UHGV virus genome: UHGV-1373020 | Direction: 5' to 3' (one strand) | Length of the DNA: 48,743 nt | Origin: a virus | Shown here: positions 38,361-45,430 of the stretch, piece by piece | Layout: every line of letters starts with the position of its first letter | Position numbering within the stretch: position 1 is the first letter of the stretch | Notes under the pieces: model-generated | What the model saw: only the letters and a program-made list of their open reading frames with translations | The model's database searches: none | Told to the model about the DNA's origin: nothing | Made by a program: the position numbers and the translations under genes

Positions 38361-38513
38361 TTACCACAATAAACCAGACTCATCTTCGTACCATCCATTC
38401 CATGCGTTTCCTGCATCATCATTAATGCGAAACTGCATTCCGTTGAACTCTGCATCATACAGCTCACCCTCTGTAAATCTGAAACTCGTTGAACTTGCAC
38501 AGAATAATTTCAT
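38361..38513 (-). CDS. hypothetical protein (50 aa)
   Basis: MKLFCASSTSFRFTEGELYDAEFNGMQFRINDDAGNAWNGWYEDESGLLW with a GAGGTG SD. Absent from the ORF track. Confidence 0.4.
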   Translation of the reverse strand: MKLFCASSTSFRFTEGELYDAEFNGMQFRINDDAGNAWNGWYEDESGLLW

Positions 38514-38551
38514 CTTCATCACCTCTCTTGTTATTGTTAGTTGAATCTACA

Positions 38552-38986
38552 TCAATCAACACCTGAAAGCAAGCCAAAATAGAAAAGCGTGGCTTTTTTT
38601 AGTTGTTCAGCACCGTATGCGATGGCTGCGAACTTGCCTTCTCTATGCGCTCTCTCAAGAAATTTACGTTGGTCTTTTGATACCTGAGATTTCGTTCTAT
38701 CTTCTTTCTTAAGCTCCATTACTGCGCAAGAATGAGCAACACCATCGCTTAGTATAATTACGTCGCTCACTCCGCTTTTTACGCCCATTTTTTTTCTCTT
38801 TATAACGAACTGCGCACCGCTTTTTGTCCCTGTCTCATTTGGAACATGAAACCATATAACATCAGGGAAGTGATAATCCATCCACAACCCATAAGTCATC
38901 TGTTCCGTTTCCTCTGAATTACACTCCCCACGATAACCGCTATCAAATACCCATATCCCGCTATCAAGCTGCTTCACTTTGCTCAC
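38552..38986 (-). CDS. VRR-NUC domain nuclease
   Basis: PD-(D/E)XK-type motif DVIILSDG...AVMELK. Confidence 0.7.
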   Translation of the reverse strand: MSKVKQLDSGIWVFDSGYRGECNSEETEQMTYGLWMDYHFPDVIWFHVPNETGTKSGAQFVIKRKKMGVKSGVSDVIILSDGVAHSCAVMELKKEDRTKSQVSKDQRKFLERAHREGKFAAIAYGAEQLKKATLFYFGLLSGVD

Positions 38987-40577
38987 CTGTAAAATCTTTT
39001 CTGTGGATTATGTCGCGACCTTTATCGTTGATACGATGCGTGATGCGTTTTGGCGCTTTAATCAATCCAGCATACATCATGAATTGCTTAGCATTCTGGC
39101 ATTTCAGGATTTTCCCTGCCATTGACTTATCATCAAGGTGAGGAAAGACCGCCTTTGCCTTGAACATGTTTTTCATGTGAGTTGCGCCGCCATAAGGGTA
39201 GAAAACTTCGTTAGCCCAGCCCTCTCTTCCATCACAACGATTAATCCAGTAGCGATACAAAATACCCTCTCCATCCTTCGTCAACTGGACTTTGAAGTCC
39301 ATAACATCAGCCCATTCGTTGTCGGTATACGCACGCTCATTCAGTGCCGCATTCGGGTCGCGCAAAACATGATCGCAATGTCGGCAATAACGTGCAGTAG
39401 GGTCGTTTTTAGTGCCGCAGCCATCATCAAAAATACGGATGCCGTGCTTATCAAAACCGCAACGGATATAACTGAAAAACTCCTCGCAGCGACCATCTGG
39501 CGACAATGCATCTTTGCCAATGCAGCGGCGCGCATATGGACTGTTCATTGTTCCGCACTTAGGACACGGAACCTGTTCACCACTGCGTTTTGAACGTTGC
39601 GCTTCGGCCTCTTCCAGAATCGGGTCTTCATACAGCTGACCAAGTTCAAACATCGTGCCTGAGAAATCAAGAACCAGATGGTCTTCTTTATGATACCCGG
39701 CATCAATTTGCTCTTTCTTCAGCAAGCGCATTCCGCGACCAAGCAACTGAACAAGAAGGGTGAGTGACATTATTTTTCGTAATATTACAGATGTATCCCA
39801 AAGTGGGATGTTGACGCCGGTCGTCAAACAACCAATCTGGAAAACATATTTAATCTTGCCAGTGTATGCGTCTTTTAACGCCTTGCGTCTGGCTTTCATG
39901 CCCATATCTTCGGTGACAATCGCGTAACTCCCTTCAGGTAAATATTTTGCCGCCTCCTGACAGTGCTTCTTGCCAGCGCAAGTAATCAATATGCCATTTC
40001 TGTTTTTTGTCAGCTCCATAACCTTAAGCATGATTTTCTGCGTCAGCGTACCTTGCTCAAGGATTTCTTTCTGCATCTGCTTGAGCTGCTCGGAAGTAAA
40101 ATCCTGCGTGCCATCGCTTCCTGATGCCTCAAATGCTGACAGATCGTAATGCAAATCATCAATGTCATGCAGCCCAAAAATCGTCGGAACAAGGAACCCA
40201 ATATCAACAAGATATTTGGTATCGATGTTTACTATTTCATGTTTCCAGTAAGCACCCTTAATCGAGTCGGTGCCACGAAACGGACTACCTGTGTATCCAA
40301 TAACAATGACATCGTGACCGTATTTAGCCTTACATCTGCGGTTAAGTTCAGTCATGATGACGCCATATTGCGTTTCAGGACTTTCGCTTACCACGTCCTC
40401 CCAGTTCATCTGGTGGCAGTTATGAGCCACGAATCCGTTTGCAACAAAATTGTGATGGATAGGCATCTCTATATCCCACACCATCTCATCACCAATTTCA
40501 CTTATTGACTCGATTACTTTTGATTTTGTATTCCACGCCATCTTCCATGTGGTCAGCAACTCTTTTAAAAAACTCAT
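38964..40577 (-). CDS. C-terminal piece of the intein-interrupted SF2 helicase: intein C-segment then C-extein
   Basis: The intein C-segment (40419-40577) carries block F/G ...VIESISEIGDEMVWDIEMPIHHNFVANGFVAHN. The C-extein (38964-40418) starts CHQ and has motif VI QLLGRGMR and a C-terminal multi-CxxC region. Confidence 0.75.
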   Translation of the reverse strand: MSFLKELLTTWKMAWNTKSKVIESISEIGDEMVWDIEMPIHHNFVANGFVAHNCHQMNWEDVVSESPETQYGVIMTELNRRCKAKYGHDVIVIGYTGSPFRGTDSIKGAYWKHEIVNIDTKYLVDIGFLVPTIFGLHDIDDLHYDLSAFEASGSDGTQDFTSEQLKQMQKEILEQGTLTQKIMLKVMELTKNRNGILITCAGKKHCQEAAKYLPEGSYAIVTEDMGMKARRKALKDAYTGKIKYVFQIGCLTTGVNIPLWDTSVILRKIMSLTLLVQLLGRGMRLLKKEQIDAGYHKEDHLVLDFSGTMFELGQLYEDPILEEAEAQRSKRSGEQVPCPKCGTMNSPYARRCIGKDALSPDGRCEEFFSYIRCGFDKHGIRIFDDGCGTKNDPTARYCRHCDHVLRDPNAALNERAYTDNEWADVMDFKVQLTKDGEGILYRYWINRCDGREGWANEVFYPYGGATHMKNMFKAKAVFPHLDDKSMAGKILKCQNAKQFMMYAGLIKAPKRITHRINDKGRDIIHRKDFTGEQSEAA

Positions 40578-41561
40578 CCTGCGCTTCCTCATCAAAAATA
40601 TTTACATAAAACATTTCGCGTTTTTTCGTTCCGCCGATGTAAGAATTAACTCGCGCTCCATTTAATCCAAGAAAATCATTCAATGCATTAGCTACTTCCC
40701 AACATTCACCCTCCCTGAATGCCTCAGTATGAATACATACCTGCCTGTACTTGCCATCACTTATTGTTGAATGCCCATCATCACCAAAATAAACAGCCCA
40801 GCCAACTTCGTTTAACTCCCTGCATATCTTTCCTATGCTGTACCCATTTGCTGAGTCACCATATTTCTCAGCGTACCCGTCAAGTATCTTTGTGCATGAC
40901 GTCCTGACCTGAAACCATTTGTCACCGAATCCTGGATTATCTCTTTCCCTGTATGCTGCATTAAGTTTTTTGAATCTTGCCGCCTTACACAGAGCGTGAT
41001 CTTTATTCCCCATGTTCCACATTAGTCTGTGAGTTCCCCTTTTCGTGTTCTTAATCAGGCACCCATCACCAGCAAGAGCAGCGAGTATGTTTTGATGCAA
41101 GAAGTCATCAATAACAAGGTCGCTATCAACGGTTGAATTATGATGACCAGACCTAAAATCAACATAGTAACCGTAAGGATTTTCCAGTAATGCACTCAAC
41201 CCTTTGCCCGTGTGCGGAAAAACCTTTTCGCCACAGCCACACTTGCACGAAGGAGCTTTGTCATAAATCTGTCCGACGAGCCATCTAACGACAGAGTCAT
41301 TCCAGCCTTTAGTTTTCCCGCTTCTACCCAGCAGCCGTTTGAATAAAGTTTGTGTGTACTCGTGCATTTTATTTCCTCACCGCCTCTTAATTTAATTGAT
41401 GATACACTCTTTATACCATTAGTAAATACTCTTTTAGGTTTGTGGTACATCCATTCACCAGTAACTTCATCTAAGCATTTGATTTCTTTATTTATTAAAC
41501 TATCGTCATCAATTCTCACCCACCCATCACTCGTTAATATCAGTGCATCACCAGTCAAGCA
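40419..41561 (-). mobile_element. LAGLIDADG-type intein inserted in helicase motif II (DE | CH)
   Basis: Block A starts at the Cys directly after DE. HNF...HN is followed by Cys. Removing it gives the spliced junction FVLMDE-CHQMNW, a DECH box. Confidence 0.75.
40498..41367 (-). CDS. LAGLIDADG homing-endonuclease domain of the intein, in a frame shifted from both splicing domains
   Basis: Two dodecapeptide-like motifs about 95 aa apart (ILAALAGDGCL and WAVYFGDDGHS), preceded by a CKCGCG zinc-knuckle-like DNA-recognition region. A GAGG SD lies 8-12 nt upstream of the ATG at 41367. Confidence 0.65.
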   Translation of the reverse strand: MHEYTQTLFKRLLGRSGKTKGWNDSVVRWLVGQIYDKAPSCKCGCGEKVFPHTGKGLSALLENPYGYYVDFRSGHHNSTVDSDLVIDDFLHQNILAALAGDGCLIKNTKRGTHRLMWNMGNKDHALCKAARFKKLNAAYRERDNPGFGDKWFQVRTSCTKILDGYAEKYGDSANGYSIGKICRELNEVGWAVYFGDDGHSTISDGKYRQVCIHTEAFREGECWEVANALNDFLGLNGARVNSYIGGTKKREMFYVNIFDEEAQDEFFKRVADHMEDGVEYKIKSNRVNK

Positions 41562-42044
41562 CTCATCCATAAGAACAAAACGAGGGCAAAAATCGGAAAG
41601 TGCACCTTTAGAAAGTAAATTACCTGACTCGTCCTTCTTATCGAAAAGACCATTTATTATTGTTCCCTCAGTCCCAGCAATAAGTGGATATGCCGTTGAC
41701 TTTCTGCCAAGAGCAGCGCTAAAAAGTGAGTTTTTCACACTCAGATTCCATAGCTCTTCCGCATCCTGCTCAATAATTTCTGGCTGTCTTGCAATAACAA
41801 GCCCTTCCCACCCCATATCCTGAAAGCGTCGCGCAATCATGGCAATCATGATCGTCTTACCAGCACCTACTGATGCAGTCACAAAACTTGGTTTCGGGTC
41901 TTTGCCAAACTTGCGGATAACTTCAGCCGTCTTTTCATAAACCAGCCACTGATATGGTCGCGGCTCAATTTCCCCTGTATGAACAACTGACCGCAATTTA
42001 TCTATGTCAAGTTCCGCAATCATTGCGTCTATTTTATGCGTCAT
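41196..42044 (-). CDS. N-terminal piece of the helicase: N-extein then intein N-segment
   Basis: The N-extein (41562-42044) has Walker A SVGAGKT and ends with FVLMDE of motif II. The intein N-segment (41199-41561) has block A CLTGDALIL and block B TSTHKLY. The last 30 or so aa look out of frame. Confidence 0.75.
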   Translation of the reverse strand: MTHKIDAMIAELDIDKLRSVVHTGEIEPRPYQWLVYEKTAEVIRKFGKDPKPSFVTASVGAGKTIMIAMIARRFQDMGWEGLVIARQPEIIEQDAEELWNLSVKNSLFSAALGRKSTAYPLIAGTEGTIINGLFDKKDESGNLLSKGALSDFCPRFVLMDECLTGDALILTSDGWVRIDDDSLINKEIKCLDEVTGEWMYHKPKRVFTNGIKSVSSIKLRGGEEIKCTSTHKLYSNGCWVEAGKLKAGMTLSLDGSSDRFMTKLLRASVAVAKRFFRTRAKG

Positions 42045-42060
42045 AGCAAATAACCTTTGT

Positions 42061-42090
42061 TGATGTTTCTACGTCAATTAGCTTATACTC
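42061..42090 (+). promoter_or_regulatory. putative promoter TTGATG-N18-TATACT for the primase gene
   Basis: The spacer carries a TTTCTACGTCAAT 13-mer variant, with CAATCTACACC downstream. Confidence 0.4.
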
Positions 42091-42119
42091 AATCTACACC
42101 AACAATCAAGGGTCAATTT

Positions 42120-43073
42120 ATGAGATACGACTGGAAAGACATTGAGCCAAAAATGCTCGGAAATTGGCAGGCCGCCATCATGTCTATCGTCAATGTGGAT
42201 AGCAGAGTTTTCAATGGCAAGCACCAGCCGTGCCCGTCATGTCTTGGCAAAGACAGGTATCGCTTTGATGACAACTTCGAAACAAAGGGCGATGGAGGAG
42301 CAATCTGCAACCAGTGCGGTTCCGGCAGCGGCATGAACTGGCTGATGAAACTCTCTGGCATGAGTTTTCCAGAAGCACTGGAGGCTCTGGGAGGATTCCT
42401 GAATATGCATCCACGCGAAAAGCTGGAGGCAATCAGGAAGGAGTTACCGAAGATAAATTACAATGATGACTTCATAACAGAGCATGAAGTCGCTGCAATC
42501 ATGGCCAAAACGACTCGTGTCGCGATGAATGAGTGGAGTTTGATAAATGGTATTGGTTGCGACATTAACGTCGCCAGAGGTAAATCTGGAGAGCTTATGG
42601 CGGTTGAGATGATGCGCGCTGACACAATGAAGCAGTGCAACGTGGCATTCATTGGCATGGATGGCGATGCATTCAGAACATTTTTCCGCGCAGGATACAA
42701 CAAGGACTCAGCCATCAACGGTAAACTCACGCGTGGTGCGATAAGCCCAATCGGAGAAGATAACGGTAAGTTCATTTATCTGGTATCTGATTATGCCGAT
42801 GCATGGAAATGCCATTACTTCACTGGTGCGCATGTCTGGTGTTGCTGGTCTCCTGAAAACATGTGGGAAGTGGTGCGTTCTGTTAGCGATGAAACGAAAG
42901 CGAGATTGCGTTGCATAGTTAATTATAAATTTGACGAACTTTGCGCTGCGGAAAACGCAGGACTACCGGTGATGCTGCCTGATGATGCGAACACAATCAG
43001 GATGGCGAAGAGAATCAGAAGAAAAATTTATGCCGCTGGCGATCTGATAAAGAAAATGTCAGTCAATAGATAA
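42120..43073 (+). CDS. DNA primase (P4-alpha-type zinc ribbon plus Toprim)
   Basis: HQPCPSCLGKDRYRFDD...GGAICNQCG zinc-binding domain, then an acidic Toprim-like core. Start is taken at 42120. The tracked ORF starts at 42057. Confidence 0.7.
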   Translation: MRYDWKDIEPKMLGNWQAAIMSIVNVDSRVFNGKHQPCPSCLGKDRYRFDDNFETKGDGGAICNQCGSGSGMNWLMKLSGMSFPEALEALGGFLNMHPREKLEAIRKELPKINYNDDFITEHEVAAIMAKTTRVAMNEWSLINGIGCDINVARGKSGELMAVEMMRADTMKQCNVAFIGMDGDAFRTFFRAGYNKDSAINGKLTRGAISPIGEDNGKFIYLVSDYADAWKCHYFTGAHVWCCWSPENMWEVVRSVSDETKARLRCIVNYKFDELCAAENAGLPVMLPDDANTIRMAKRIRRKIYAAGDLIKKMSVNR

Positions 43074-43646: not shown

Positions 43647-43838
43647 TCACTTAATCATCAATTTTGAAATGTCAACATAACCAACACAAAATCTGTGCCA
43701 GTAATTATCAAGCACGTGATAATTAGACCGAATCCATACTTTGTTAATACCACTCCAGAAAAACCACGTCGAATAACCATGCGGCCTGAAACGCCATAAA
43801 CCTTCTGAGCGGCAAAGTTCGCCTGATATTGTTCTCAT
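43647..43838 (-). CDS. hypothetical protein (63 aa, Trp-rich)
   Basis: ORF only. Unusual composition. Confidence 0.3.
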   Translation of the reverse strand: MRTISGELCRSEGLWRFRPHGYSTWFFWSGINKVWIRSNYHVLDNYWHRFCVGYVDISKLMIK

Positions 43839-45430
43839 TTCAAGTTCCTCATAAATCTCATGCGCTTAACGGCAGCAGAAAGGTAATTTCTAACCGTTGA
43901 GTTCATCCGCAGACCATCCCATGAACCATCACTACACATCTTAATCGCTCTTGGGTTATCCCTGTCCAGCATTAGTGGTGAATGCTTATTTTCCTCAATA
44001 GCAAGAACAACTTCATAAACAAATTTATCCGGCGTTAATGTGATGTTATTCGAGTCAGCAGAATTGATTATCTTTTCAACTCTGTCACGGCACAGCTTGT
44101 TCTTTATAACAGACAAATAAGGCGTTTTAATGAATGCCTGCGATTCACAAATTCGCTTTATTTTTTCAACAATGTTCGACCACTCAGTATTTTCAAGACC
44201 ATCAAATGCCTGTTCACCCTCAAGGAATCTTTTCAGCCCTGCGAGGTGTTCAAGAACAGTGAGATAACCCCACTCGATATGCTCCGTCGTCACTGATGGT
44301 GTCATTCCCCGACGACTTGACAGATCGGTATACGCCGCCAGAGTTGCAAGATCGACAATCATTAGACCCATACGAGGGATAACATCACCAACAACACCAT
44401 CGCAATCACCAAGCTCACTTTCCAGTTTCATAGACAGATATCTGTGCAGTTTTTTCGCATTATCATCAGCCCATACAACGTTAGTTTTCGCGGTAAGAAC
44501 TCTACCTTTCCACTCATTGATTATTTTTCTTGAAAGCGTACCACTCACTTCCACATCCTTCATCGCTGGCATTTCCTCACCAGCAAGATGCCCAAGCTGG
44601 AACAGCACACGCCCCATACCGCCATCTTTCTGCCATGAACGCGCAGCATCTATTCCCTGCTCTGGCGTGACAGTAATCAGCGGAACAAATTTTGCGTTTT
44701 CAATTCCACCGTCTTTTGTTGCAATTTCGTACTCATTCATTGCCGACTTTAGCGCGCGCCCAACGCTGTGGTCCATCATCGCAAGGCGCTTATAATCTAT
44801 GACTCCTTTCCCATCATCGCCACCAGTAAGTGGCACTATCCATCCCTCAGCACTTGCTGCAGCCATGATGCGTTTTTGGTTTTGTTCCCACGTAAGGTTT
44901 TCAAGCAACTCCTTGATTATTGGTCTGTTAGGAACCCACACGCCGCCATCAGTGAGGCCTCTATACCACGCCATAGTACCGCCAAGATATGCATTGCGCG
45001 GGTTGTTCCAGTCTTCAAGATGTTGCTTGTCATCGTTCACAACGTAGAGCAAAGACCCGCCTCCAGCAATCAGGTCCAACTGCATCTGTTTCGTCGAGGT
45101 TGATTTGGATGCGCAAACTCTGGACCCTATTCCCAGTGCATTGGCATATGCCCTGACGAAACTCACCGGGGCGCCCTTACCTGCACCAGAGCGAGCCACG
45201 AGAAATATGCCAGTATTGCATATACTACCTGTTGGACCAATCAAGTATCGTCCAGCCATCGCCTGAGCAAGACCCAAAGCGCCAGTTAAACGATATCTTC
45301 CCCCGCCCTCACGGCGCTCAAACCCCCTTGCGATCTCATCCATAAACTCACCAAGTGCCCCGGGAGCCTCCCGCTTTATGCCCATAGCCAGAGACTCAAA
45401 ATCAATCGAACTCATCAATATACCCTCCAT
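43835..45430 (-). CDS. hypothetical 531-aa protein with a degenerate P-loop-like motif (replication module)
   Basis: LVARSGAGKGAPV, with Lys followed by Gly rather than Ser/Thr. The largest ORF in the replication block. Confidence 0.7.
   Translation of the reverse strand: MEGILMSSIDFESLAMGIKREAPGALGEFMDEIARGFERREGGGRYRLTGALGLAQAMAGRYLIGPTGSICNTGIFLVARSGAGKGAPVSFVRAYANALGIGSRVCASKSTSTKQMQLDLIAGGGSLLYVVNDDKQHLEDWNNPRNAYLGGTMAWYRGLTDGGVWVPNRPIIKELLENLTWEQNQKRIMAAASAEGWIVPLTGGDDGKGVIDYKRLAMMDHSVGRALKSAMNEYEIATKDGGIENAKFVPLITVTPEQGIDAARSWQKDGGMGRVLFQLGHLAGEEMPAMKDVEVSGTLSRKIINEWKGRVLTAKTNVVWADDNAKKLHRYLSMKLESELGDCDGVVGDVIPRMGLMIVDLATLAAYTDLSSRRGMTPSVTTEHIEWGYLTVLEHLAGLKRFLEGEQAFDGLENTEWSNIVEKIKRICESQAFIKTPYLSVIKNKLCRDRVEKIINSADSNNITLTPDKFVYEVVLAIEENKHSPLMLDRDNPRAIKMCSDGSWDGLRMNSTVRNYLSAAVKRMRFMRNLK

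Follow-up and report, generated by a model that had tools for sequence, protein, structure and literature searches.

A phage DECH-box helicase gene probably fractured by a split DnaX-type intein with an overlapping out-of-frame LAGLIDADG endonuclease gene

Introduction

How could an intact helicase be produced from a gene whose reading frame is closed exactly inside one of its conserved motifs? The question is raised by a locus in the UHGV virus genome UHGV-1373020, a stretch of 48,743 nucleotides (nt) that is below called the window, where the gene for a DECH-box helicase of superfamily 2 (SF2) is interrupted by an intein region containing a LAGLIDADG endonuclease. A reading made from the sequence alone, without database searches (below, the sequence-only reading), had left three explanations for this arrangement: a decaying intein that makes the helicase a pseudogene, a fractured gene that needs protein trans-splicing, and sequencing indels. 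It contained neither the conserved overlap of the endonuclease ORF with both intein halves nor the kinship of the element with the DnaX intein.

We consider, with good confidence, that the locus is a fractured SF2 helicase gene repaired by trans-splicing of a naturally split class-1 intein of the DnaX type, with an overlapping gene for a free-standing homing endonuclease. Thus, of the three explanations, the second appears to be the right one, supported by recurrence of the arrangement, selection, and conserved splicing residues. The argument builds on the anatomy of the locus, its conservation, purifying selection on its three parts, intact catalytic residues, and homology to the DnaX inteins.

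The mechanism that we infer comprises three initiation events, trans-splicing, endonuclease activity, and homing. Three polypeptides would be made from three start sites, namely, the N-extein with the N-terminal intein half (IntN), 282 amino acids (aa); the endonuclease, 289 aa; and the C-terminal intein half (IntC) with the C-extein, approximately 537 aa. IntN and IntC would associate to form the HINT fold, and the exteins would be ligated by protein trans-splicing, yielding a helicase of 645 aa in which the DECH motif is intact. The endonuclease, in turn, would cut intein-less helicase alleles of co-infecting phages, and repair following the cut would copy the whole cassette into the intein-less allele (homing).

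Results

Organization of the locus

The locus consists of three open reading frames (ORFs), all on the minus strand. ORF1 (42044–41196, 282 aa) carries the N-extein and IntN and reads ...FVLMDE/CLTGDALILTSDGW... (here and below, a slash marks the extein–intein border or, in uninterrupted sequences, the insertion point), with block B TSTHKLY. ORF2 (41367–40498, 289 aa) encodes the endonuclease with the motifs ILAALAGDGCL and WAVYFGDDGHS, and ORF3 (40595–38964, 543 aa), carrying IntC and the C-extein, reads ...VWDIEMPIHHNFVANGFVAHN/CHQMNW... and contains QLLGRGMR. ORF1 and ORF3 have a common frame, and ORF2 is in the −1 frame; hence, the intein region described by the sequence-only reading as spread over three reading frames occupies three ORFs but only two frames.

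The cassette inserted in the helicase gene is 1143 nt long (41561–40419), from Cys1 (41561–41559) to Asn (40421–40419), and splits SF2 motif II (DE/CH) precisely at the boundary of its Glu and Cys codons. The N-extein (41562–42044) covers helicase residues 1–161 with the ResIII/motif I region and ends with ...FVLMDE, the first half of motif II, while the C-extein (38964–40418, 484 codons and a stop) starts with Cys+1-His-Gln and contains Helicase_C, motif VI, formed by the QLLGRGMR mentioned above, and zinc ribbons. IntN (41196–41561) has 121 codons and a TGA stop (41198–41196) and contains Cys1, block A CLTGDALIL, and block B TSTH; its Hint N-domain extends to approximately residue 97 and is followed by a basic 24-residue tail, kept in about 27 clusters of related proteins described below. 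IntC (40419–40577) comprises 53 codons from ATG 40577 to the terminal His-Asn, with block F VWDIEM and block G NGFVAHN. The free-standing endonuclease gene (40498–41367) starts within intein block B; its overlap is 172 nt with IntN and 80 nt with the IntC ORF. All features that had led to the proposal of an intein exactly inside motif II (DE/CH), with a LAGLIDADG endonuclease in another frame, were recovered.

The restored helicase and the split intein

Deletion of the 1143 nt in silico yields a 645-aa protein with an intact DECH motif. In an ungapped alignment with the uninterrupted helicase of Salmonella phage vB_CECAV_048, which has IDECHQMNW as motif II, 632 of 643 positions are identical. 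This bears out the earlier claim that removal of the element restores a DECH helicase. The N-extein equals the intein-less orthologue save for a four-residue patch at the junction, and the predicted junction of the spliced helicase is FVLMDE-CHQMNW (tryptic junction peptide FVLMDECHQMNWEDVVSESPETQYGVIMTELNR). According to Pfam, ORF1 contains ResIII and a weak Hint match, ORF3, the C-terminal part of Intein_splicing and Helicase_C, and ORF2, LAGLIDADG_2 below the threshold. In the PHROG helicase family phrog_16, positions 267–385 are matched by ORF1 and positions 385–763 by ORF3; the two ranges meet at one profile position (385), and thus ORF1 and ORF3 abut, the match being contiguous over the junction.

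The intein halves joined in silico (IntN residues 1–97 and the last 35 residues of IntC) match the Spl DnaX mini-intein 7cfv end to end (residues 3–137, E = 7.5e-21), followed by the DnaB, RadA, gp41-1, and RecA inteins. The class-1 intein features seen in the window (CLTGD..., TSTH, VWDIEM, and NGFVAHN/C) are kept in the loci examined, that is, 15 helicase loci from approximately 10 lineages with 35–94% identity. These include close relatives of the window (L008, L009, L012), E. coli phages ES and AN_ECEAS, five Pectobacterium Ymer-like phages (two of them read in detail), and metagenomic loci (L005–L007, L010, L011, L014–L016), and come from isolates, IMG/VR contigs, JGI and Logan assemblies, and one Pantoea eucrina scaffold. 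Cys1, TxxH of block B, Asp of block F, the terminal His-Asn, and Cys+1 are kept in every lineage.

This conservation bears on the alternative that survives best, in which the intein halves act only as high-affinity dimerization domains and the helicase works with no peptide bond formed between its pieces. Phage enzyme fragments working without splicing are documented (PMC3045599), a comparable case being the split NrdA of Aeromonas phage Aeh1, held together by interaction domains, and ligation in our case is predicted from sequence. However, strict retention of Cys1, TxxH, His-Asn, and Cys+1 at such divergence argues against a purely structural role of the halves, as does the position of the break inside Walker B/DECH, where about 170 extra residues would occupy the ATPase site; moreover, engineered DnaX split inteins do trans-splice (PMC3443213). 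On balance, we regard such non-covalent rescue as improbable.

Translation of the three parts

Upstream of the endonuclease ATG (41367), the Shine-Dalgarno sequence GAGG (41375–41378, minus strand) lies inside the IntN coding sequence with a 7-nt spacer, in agreement with the sequence-only reading, which had assigned the endonuclease its own ATG and GAGG. In the 12 loci of the first set, the ATG spans two codons just before block B, xxA for Lys or Thr and TGY for Cys, and a purine-rich G-run (GGAGAGG, GGTGAGG, GGCGAGG, GGGGG) is located a few nucleotides 5′ of it in 12 out of 12. The likely start of the IntC-encoding part is ATG 40577 (MSFLKELL...), with the Shine-Dalgarno sequence GAGGAAG at 40590–40584, 6 nt upstream; this ATG is kept in the clade of the window and in the nearest lineages (L002, L005), and TTG 40595, which formally opens ORF3, is probably unused. 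More generally, the IntC ATG precedes the conserved AWNTKS by 12–15 codons, and in most lineages a motif resembling GAGG or AAGGA is located 6–10 nt upstream of this ATG.

Conserved start codons and Shine-Dalgarno motifs of both downstream ORFs in most lineages speak against another alternative, a continuous cis-splicing maxi-intein translated via two programmed frameshifts, one of −1 where IntN and the endonuclease overlap and one of +1 where the endonuclease and IntC do. ORF2 is indeed open in the −1 frame, both overlaps are present, and the window, L002, and L005 carry a correctly framed heptamer G_GGA_AAA. On the other hand, the heptamer is absent in L010, L003, L006, and L011, so that GGGAAAA is seen in only three out of seven lineages, and no other slippery site is conserved; besides, it lies within the Hint N-domain, where a shift would remove IntN strands. 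No consensus RNA structure is predicted around the endonuclease start, and an Rfam scan of 38500–42400 at E ≤ 1 retrieved neither an intron nor a frameshift element. Given no conserved slippery site, RNA structure, or Rfam match, both programmed frameshifting and an RNA intron are unlikely, and we assign the two-frameshift scheme a very low probability.

Returning to the three separately initiated parts, an invariant block GTATCATCA (41397–41405, minus strand), encoding Val-Ser-Ser of IntN, has three synonymous sites frozen in the eight sequences compared. It overlaps TTTACT-N16-TATCAT (41426–41399), the sole promoter-like match on the minus strand, approximately 30 nt 5′ of the endonuclease ATG, and may be an internal promoter or other cis element for expression of the endonuclease. 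The promoter and terminator scan of 38500–42400 yielded fewer matches than in shuffled sequences and thus carries little weight on its own.

Purifying selection and recurrence of the frame layout

The dN/dS ratios were calculated for close relatives (the window, L008, L009, and L012). They are 0.07–0.19 in the part coding for IntN only, 0.10–0.35 in the IntC-only part (0.06–0.35 for IntC), and 0.10–0.14 in the endonuclease-only part read in its own frame (0.10–0.19 for the endonuclease), compared to 3.6–6.2 for the same DNA read in the extein frame as a control. The codon-position variability has its maximum at the third positions of whichever frame is coding, that of the intein in IntN and IntC and the −1 frame across the endonuclease.

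Within the 172-nt overlap of IntN and the endonuclease, the variability follows the IntN frame up to the middle and the endonuclease frame thereafter. The first half shows constraint on the IntN frame and apparent neutrality of the endonuclease frame (dN/dS about 0.9–1.5); in the second half, the invariant C-x-CGCG of the endonuclease dominates, and the IntN tail is a passenger. In the window, this motif is CKCGCG (41230–41247, minus strand, endonuclease residues 41–46), overprinted on the IntN tail (LRASVAV). Variability in this region is low at all three codon positions; C-x-CGCG is invariant in all lineages and is present in the DnaX endonuclease, too.

Purifying selection on IntN, the endonuclease, and IntC argues against decay, that is, against a degenerating intein in a pseudogenized helicase, with the phage living on another helicase or that of the host. 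This explanation would account for the stops that interrupt the extein frame (10 in the window, from 41196 to 40601), and a primase-associated ORF (43835–45430) might supply helicase-like activity. However, the intein-proximal parts of the exteins are under purifying selection as well, the exteins are 98% identical to a functional-looking uninterrupted orthologue and have no frameshifts, the catalytic residues are intact, and the architecture has been kept through deep divergence. The decay explanation is thus strongly disfavored, and we would be surprised if it proved correct.

In 15 out of 15 helicase loci, the endonuclease is encoded in the −1 frame, its ORF overlapping both extein/intein pieces, and the extein frame is closed by 6–14 stops per locus over the endonuclease region (12 loci counted). 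An artefact, in which two compensating indels would have disrupted an ordinary in-frame intein, draws on the frame change itself and nothing further, and it is refuted by the common layout of these 15 independently assembled loci (isolates, IMG/VR, JGI, and Logan), which excludes sequencing error, and by the presence of ten stops in the extein frame, not one.

The endonuclease

The endonuclease has no sequence match in PDB at E ≤ 1 and none in PHROGs. In a collection of 5.8 billion proteins, its matches form eight clusters, all of 167–286 aa and never within a longer protein. Among 50,697 phage records, it is carried by seven, always at this helicase site. The first LAGLIDADG motif, ILAALAGDGCL (41056–41088, minus strand), includes the putative catalytic Asp101, and G100, D101, and G102 are invariant; the second, WAVYFGDDGHS (40768–40800, minus strand), contains Asp196/197, with G195, D196, D197, G198, and H199 invariant. 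The cores GDG (D101) and GDDG (D196/D197) are invariant in nine sequences.

An AlphaFold (AF2) model has a mean predicted local distance difference test (pLDDT) score of 76, residues 80–289 being confident, and the best Foldseek matches of the model are I-WcaI (E = 8e-10, TM 0.71) and I-SceI (E = 4e-8). Judging by the model, the endonuclease is a single-chain LAGLIDADG protein with a pseudo-dimeric alpha-beta-beta-alpha-beta-beta-alpha fold, structurally of the intron-type I-SceI/I-WcaI group and not the usual intein-type domain. While such structural affinity is what a group I intron with an I-SceI-type LAGLIDADG ORF, spliced at the RNA level, would bring along, this possibility may be set aside, as no Rfam intron was found at E ≤ 1 and the insert is flanked by HINT halves that are in frame and bounded by Cys1 and His-Asn/Cys.

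Public annotation of the family is inconsistent (L002, which is PP944860.1; OR466728.1; P0001–P0005). The endonuclease is unannotated in AN_ECEAS, and in phage ES the features under the match are labeled “hypothetical protein” and “minor tail protein.” Gene callers place the endonuclease start about 50 codons late, so that the conserved CxCGCG motif is lost.

Distribution and mobility of the cassette

Relatives of the insert at approximately 70% nucleotide identity are found in E. coli phages ES and AN_ECEAS (Drexlerviridae) and in the five Pectobacterium Ymer-like phages; viral metagenome contigs and a Pantoea assembly contain relatives of the window. All of the >180 related phage records that match the helicase, from Skatevirus-like Salmonella, Escherichia, and Klebsiella phages, are without the insert. 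A word-indexed search with IntN alone retrieved no match; an exhaustive phmmer search of 1.84 billion representatives yielded about 27 clusters (50% identity) of 236–313-aa proteins that end in IntN and the tail KLLRAS.AV.K.... These proteins are split N-fragments.

The Pantoea eucrina scaffold (L012, NZ_JAOBTT010000004.1, 11.3 kb) contains the split helicase and an endonuclease 94% identical to that of the window; its presence in a bacterial assembly is due to a phage that contaminated the culture or was carried in it, or else hints at Pantoea as a host. A metagenomic protein of 326 aa (P0064) is an SF2 helicase N-fragment ending in a related IntN with another tail, KLLRKILTWVDKLL, and may represent another split variant, whose endonuclease would be different or diverged.

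The histories of the cassette and of the exteins, as reflected by sequence identity, disagree. When the window is compared with AN_ECEAS, the exteins are 42–48% identical, and IntN, the endonuclease, and IntC, 68–71%; with L005 the pattern is reversed, 75–79% for the exteins and 57–66% for the intein parts. The flanks of the junction differ as well. Compared to the intein-less vB_CECAV_048, 8 out of 30 nt differ just upstream of the junction (41562–41591) and zero out of 120 nt, downstream (40299–40418), the background being about 7%, or about 2 per 30 nt. The upstream patch amounts to four amino acid changes, FCPRFVLM in the window vs. FFPRYILI in the intein-less relative. The intein-less target sequence in vB_CECAV_048 or phage C1 is ...TTCCCTCGCTATATCCTTATTGACGAA/TGCCACCAGATGAAC.... 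The flank pattern fits a co-conversion tract or a mutated target site giving immunity. Indirect evidence for site-specific cleavage of the intein-less allele comes from the sporadic distribution, the intein/extein incongruence, and the divergent flank patch.

Neighboring genes

Downstream of the locus, an ORF for a VRR-NUC nuclease (38552–38986, minus strand) overlaps the 3′ end of the C-extein by 23 nt and is followed by a DUF3799 (exonuclease VIII-like) ORF and by Erf and SSB. Together, these form a recombination module that could serve endonuclease-initiated repair. In the replication module, the ORF at 43835–45430 (minus strand, 531 aa) matches only residues 357–712 of 788 in a “DNA primase” PHROG, with a very weak DUF3987 match. 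Since it resembles the C-terminal half of primase-helicase proteins, and its product could be a second helicase-like protein, the assertion of the sequence-only reading that this module contains no other helicase is unproven.

Discussion

Points that weigh against the proposed mechanism

Several observations count against a fractured gene repaired by trans-splicing, or at least against some of its details. Splicing, cleavage by the endonuclease, and the use of three initiation sites are predictions from sequence. The gathering score of Pfam Intein_splicing (PF14890), 35.8, is not reached by the halves (21.8 and 26.2 bits), as each ORF has only part of the domain; nevertheless, the intein blocks withstood the search with the joined halves, given the match to 7cfv. 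Likewise, the endonuclease scores 22.1 bits with LAGLIDADG_2 (PF03161), below the gathering score of 25, and residues 1–77 of its model are of low confidence, the alignment being very shallow there. The 24-residue tail of IntN and an 18-residue head of IntC lie outside the minimal HINT fold and may influence how the halves associate.

The start sites are also not uniform. L014 has no ATG near the usual start of IntC. In L016, the endonuclease ATG is absent, and a start 13 codons downstream is available, while in a dnaX locus from a JGI metagenome (L013), the usable endonuclease start is 36 nt (12 codons) downstream of the homologous ATG. The first ~30 endonuclease codons show no selection of their own, and the exact start is uncertain. 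As neither L016 nor the dnaX locus has a usable ATG at the usual place, the first endonuclease residues seem to be dispensable; translation must, however, begin upstream of CxCGCG.

Comparison with the cyanobacterial DnaX intein

The closest parallel is the intein of cyanobacterial DnaX (DNA polymerase III tau/gamma), which has an out-of-frame LAGLIDADG endonuclease (Gorbalenya, 1998, as cited by Phillips, DeSimone, and Gogarten, bioRxiv 10.64898/2026.09.14.751524). This September 2026 preprint likens the dnaX endonuclease to I-WcaI and states that its source was not found; it makes no mention of phage helicases or split forms (bioRxiv 10.64898/2026.09.14.751524). In our data, the cyanobacterial DnaX inteins are the closest continuous relatives of IntN (37–39% identity, E ~1e-13). 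They are inserted at VIDE/CHMLS in the clamp-loader P-loop Walker B, and hence the local context is DE/CH, as in the phage helicase. The endonuclease is in the −1/+2 frame in both, at nt 203–1223 of 1293 in DnaX (L013) and nt 194–1064 of 1143 in the phage, and both endonucleases resemble I-WcaI (6X1J). The L013 endonuclease has the CxCGCGEK motif and the ...MDYKF end, and a profile of eleven phage endonucleases scores its ORF at 89 bits, whereas 200 shuffled sequences score at most 4.4 bits.

The two systems differ in that the L013 intein frame is open, with zero stops in 431 codons vs. 10 in the window, and the intein is a single cis-splicing precursor; besides, the host protein is a clamp loader encoded in a cyanobacterial chromosome rather than an SF2 helicase of enterobacterial phages. 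At nt 194–232 of the L013 intein, there is an ATG homologous to the phage endonuclease start, with a stop two codons later. This blocked ATG looks like a relic of a common ancestral start.

A metagenomic SF2 helicase (P0060) has a DnaX-like mini-intein at the same point (FLIMDE/C...VHN/CH). Unlike the phage locus, it is a continuous single ORF with no endonuclease, and its mini-intein is plausibly the pre-invasion state.

Comparison with other split and non-canonical inteins

In the cyanobacterial DnaE split intein (Ssp/Npu), the halves are encoded at distant loci, with no endonuclease. The phage intein resembles it as a natural split class-1 intein broken at the canonical endonuclease-insertion loop, with IntN of about 100–120 aa and the IntC core of about 35 aa, but in our case the halves are adjacent, bracketing and overlapping an apparently active endonuclease gene.

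The sequence-only reading had likened the locus to fractured genes reported from metagenomic phage helicases. The kind of arrangement is indeed that of the fractured genes gp41-1, NrdJ-1, IMPDH-1, and others, in which a split intein is accompanied by a free-standing endonuclease (Dassa et al., 2009; PMC2677866). The order on one strand is the same (extein–IntN, endonuclease gene, IntC–extein), the hosts are phage-like genes of DNA metabolism, repair is presumed to occur by trans-splicing, and the 3′ end of the endonuclease gene overlaps the 5′ end of IntC (by 6–69 bp in the published cases) (PMC2677866). However, the parallel with the gp41 type fails in the endonuclease family and in the layout: the published endonucleases are GIY-YIG or Vsr-like (EDxHD) and never LAGLIDADG, a word that occurs zero times in that paper, and the spacer between IntN and the endonuclease is non-coding, 27–51 nt, in contrast to the 172-nt coding overlap seen here (PMC2677866). 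The host protein also differs, being an SF2 DECH helicase, not the DnaB-like gp41, and the family described here is found in cultured E. coli and Pectobacterium phages (ES, AN_ECEAS, Ymer-like). Trans-splicing was later demonstrated for gp41-1.

Out-of-frame or antisense endonucleases have also been described in non-canonical inteins of actinobacteriophages (Gosselin, Arsenault, and Gogarten, bioRxiv 10.1101/2025.01.02.630785). There, as in our family, the endonuclease frame differs from that of the splicing domain, which was read as secondary invasion by a free-standing endonuclease gene; unlike our family, those inteins remain continuous, with an out-of-frame enzyme that resembles endonuclease VII and with the LAGLIDADG endonucleases encoded in antisense (bioRxiv 10.1101/2025.01.02.630785).

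Implications

No published description of the phage form was found; the Ymer-genus paper, the BASEL paper, and Novikova (2016) are silent on it. What appears to be new is that the intein and the endonuclease are both homologous to the cyanobacterial DnaX pair, and that the intein frame is closed in the phage. In this family, the fractured gene and the intein with a nested out-of-frame endonuclease, both rare architectures, come together in one homologous lineage. The series formed by a mini-intein (P0060), a continuous intein with an out-of-frame endonuclease (dnaX), and a split intein with an overlapping endonuclease is the one predicted by the invasion model of Dassa et al.

The balance falls slightly short of favoring a broader proposal, that the phage cassette and the dnaX intein are two states of one mobile composite of an intein and an overprinted I-SceI-like endonuclease, which moved between unrelated P-loop ATPases via the shared DE/CH. 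If it is true, the composite can persist for long as a split, doubly overlapping three-gene unit, and the phage form may be the reservoir missing from the dnaX study for its endonuclease. The model that endonuclease invasion breaks inteins could then be tested directly on a new natural split intein whose phages, those of E. coli and Pectobacterium, are cultivable. In practical terms, the phage intein, a relative of the well-studied DnaX intein, is a candidate for a new natural split intein having Cys1 and Cys+1.

For the phages themselves, a conserved replication helicase that appears to be broken, and whose pieces are mislabeled in public records, is very probably functional, and the family points to transfer between different host proteins via a shared nucleotide-binding motif.

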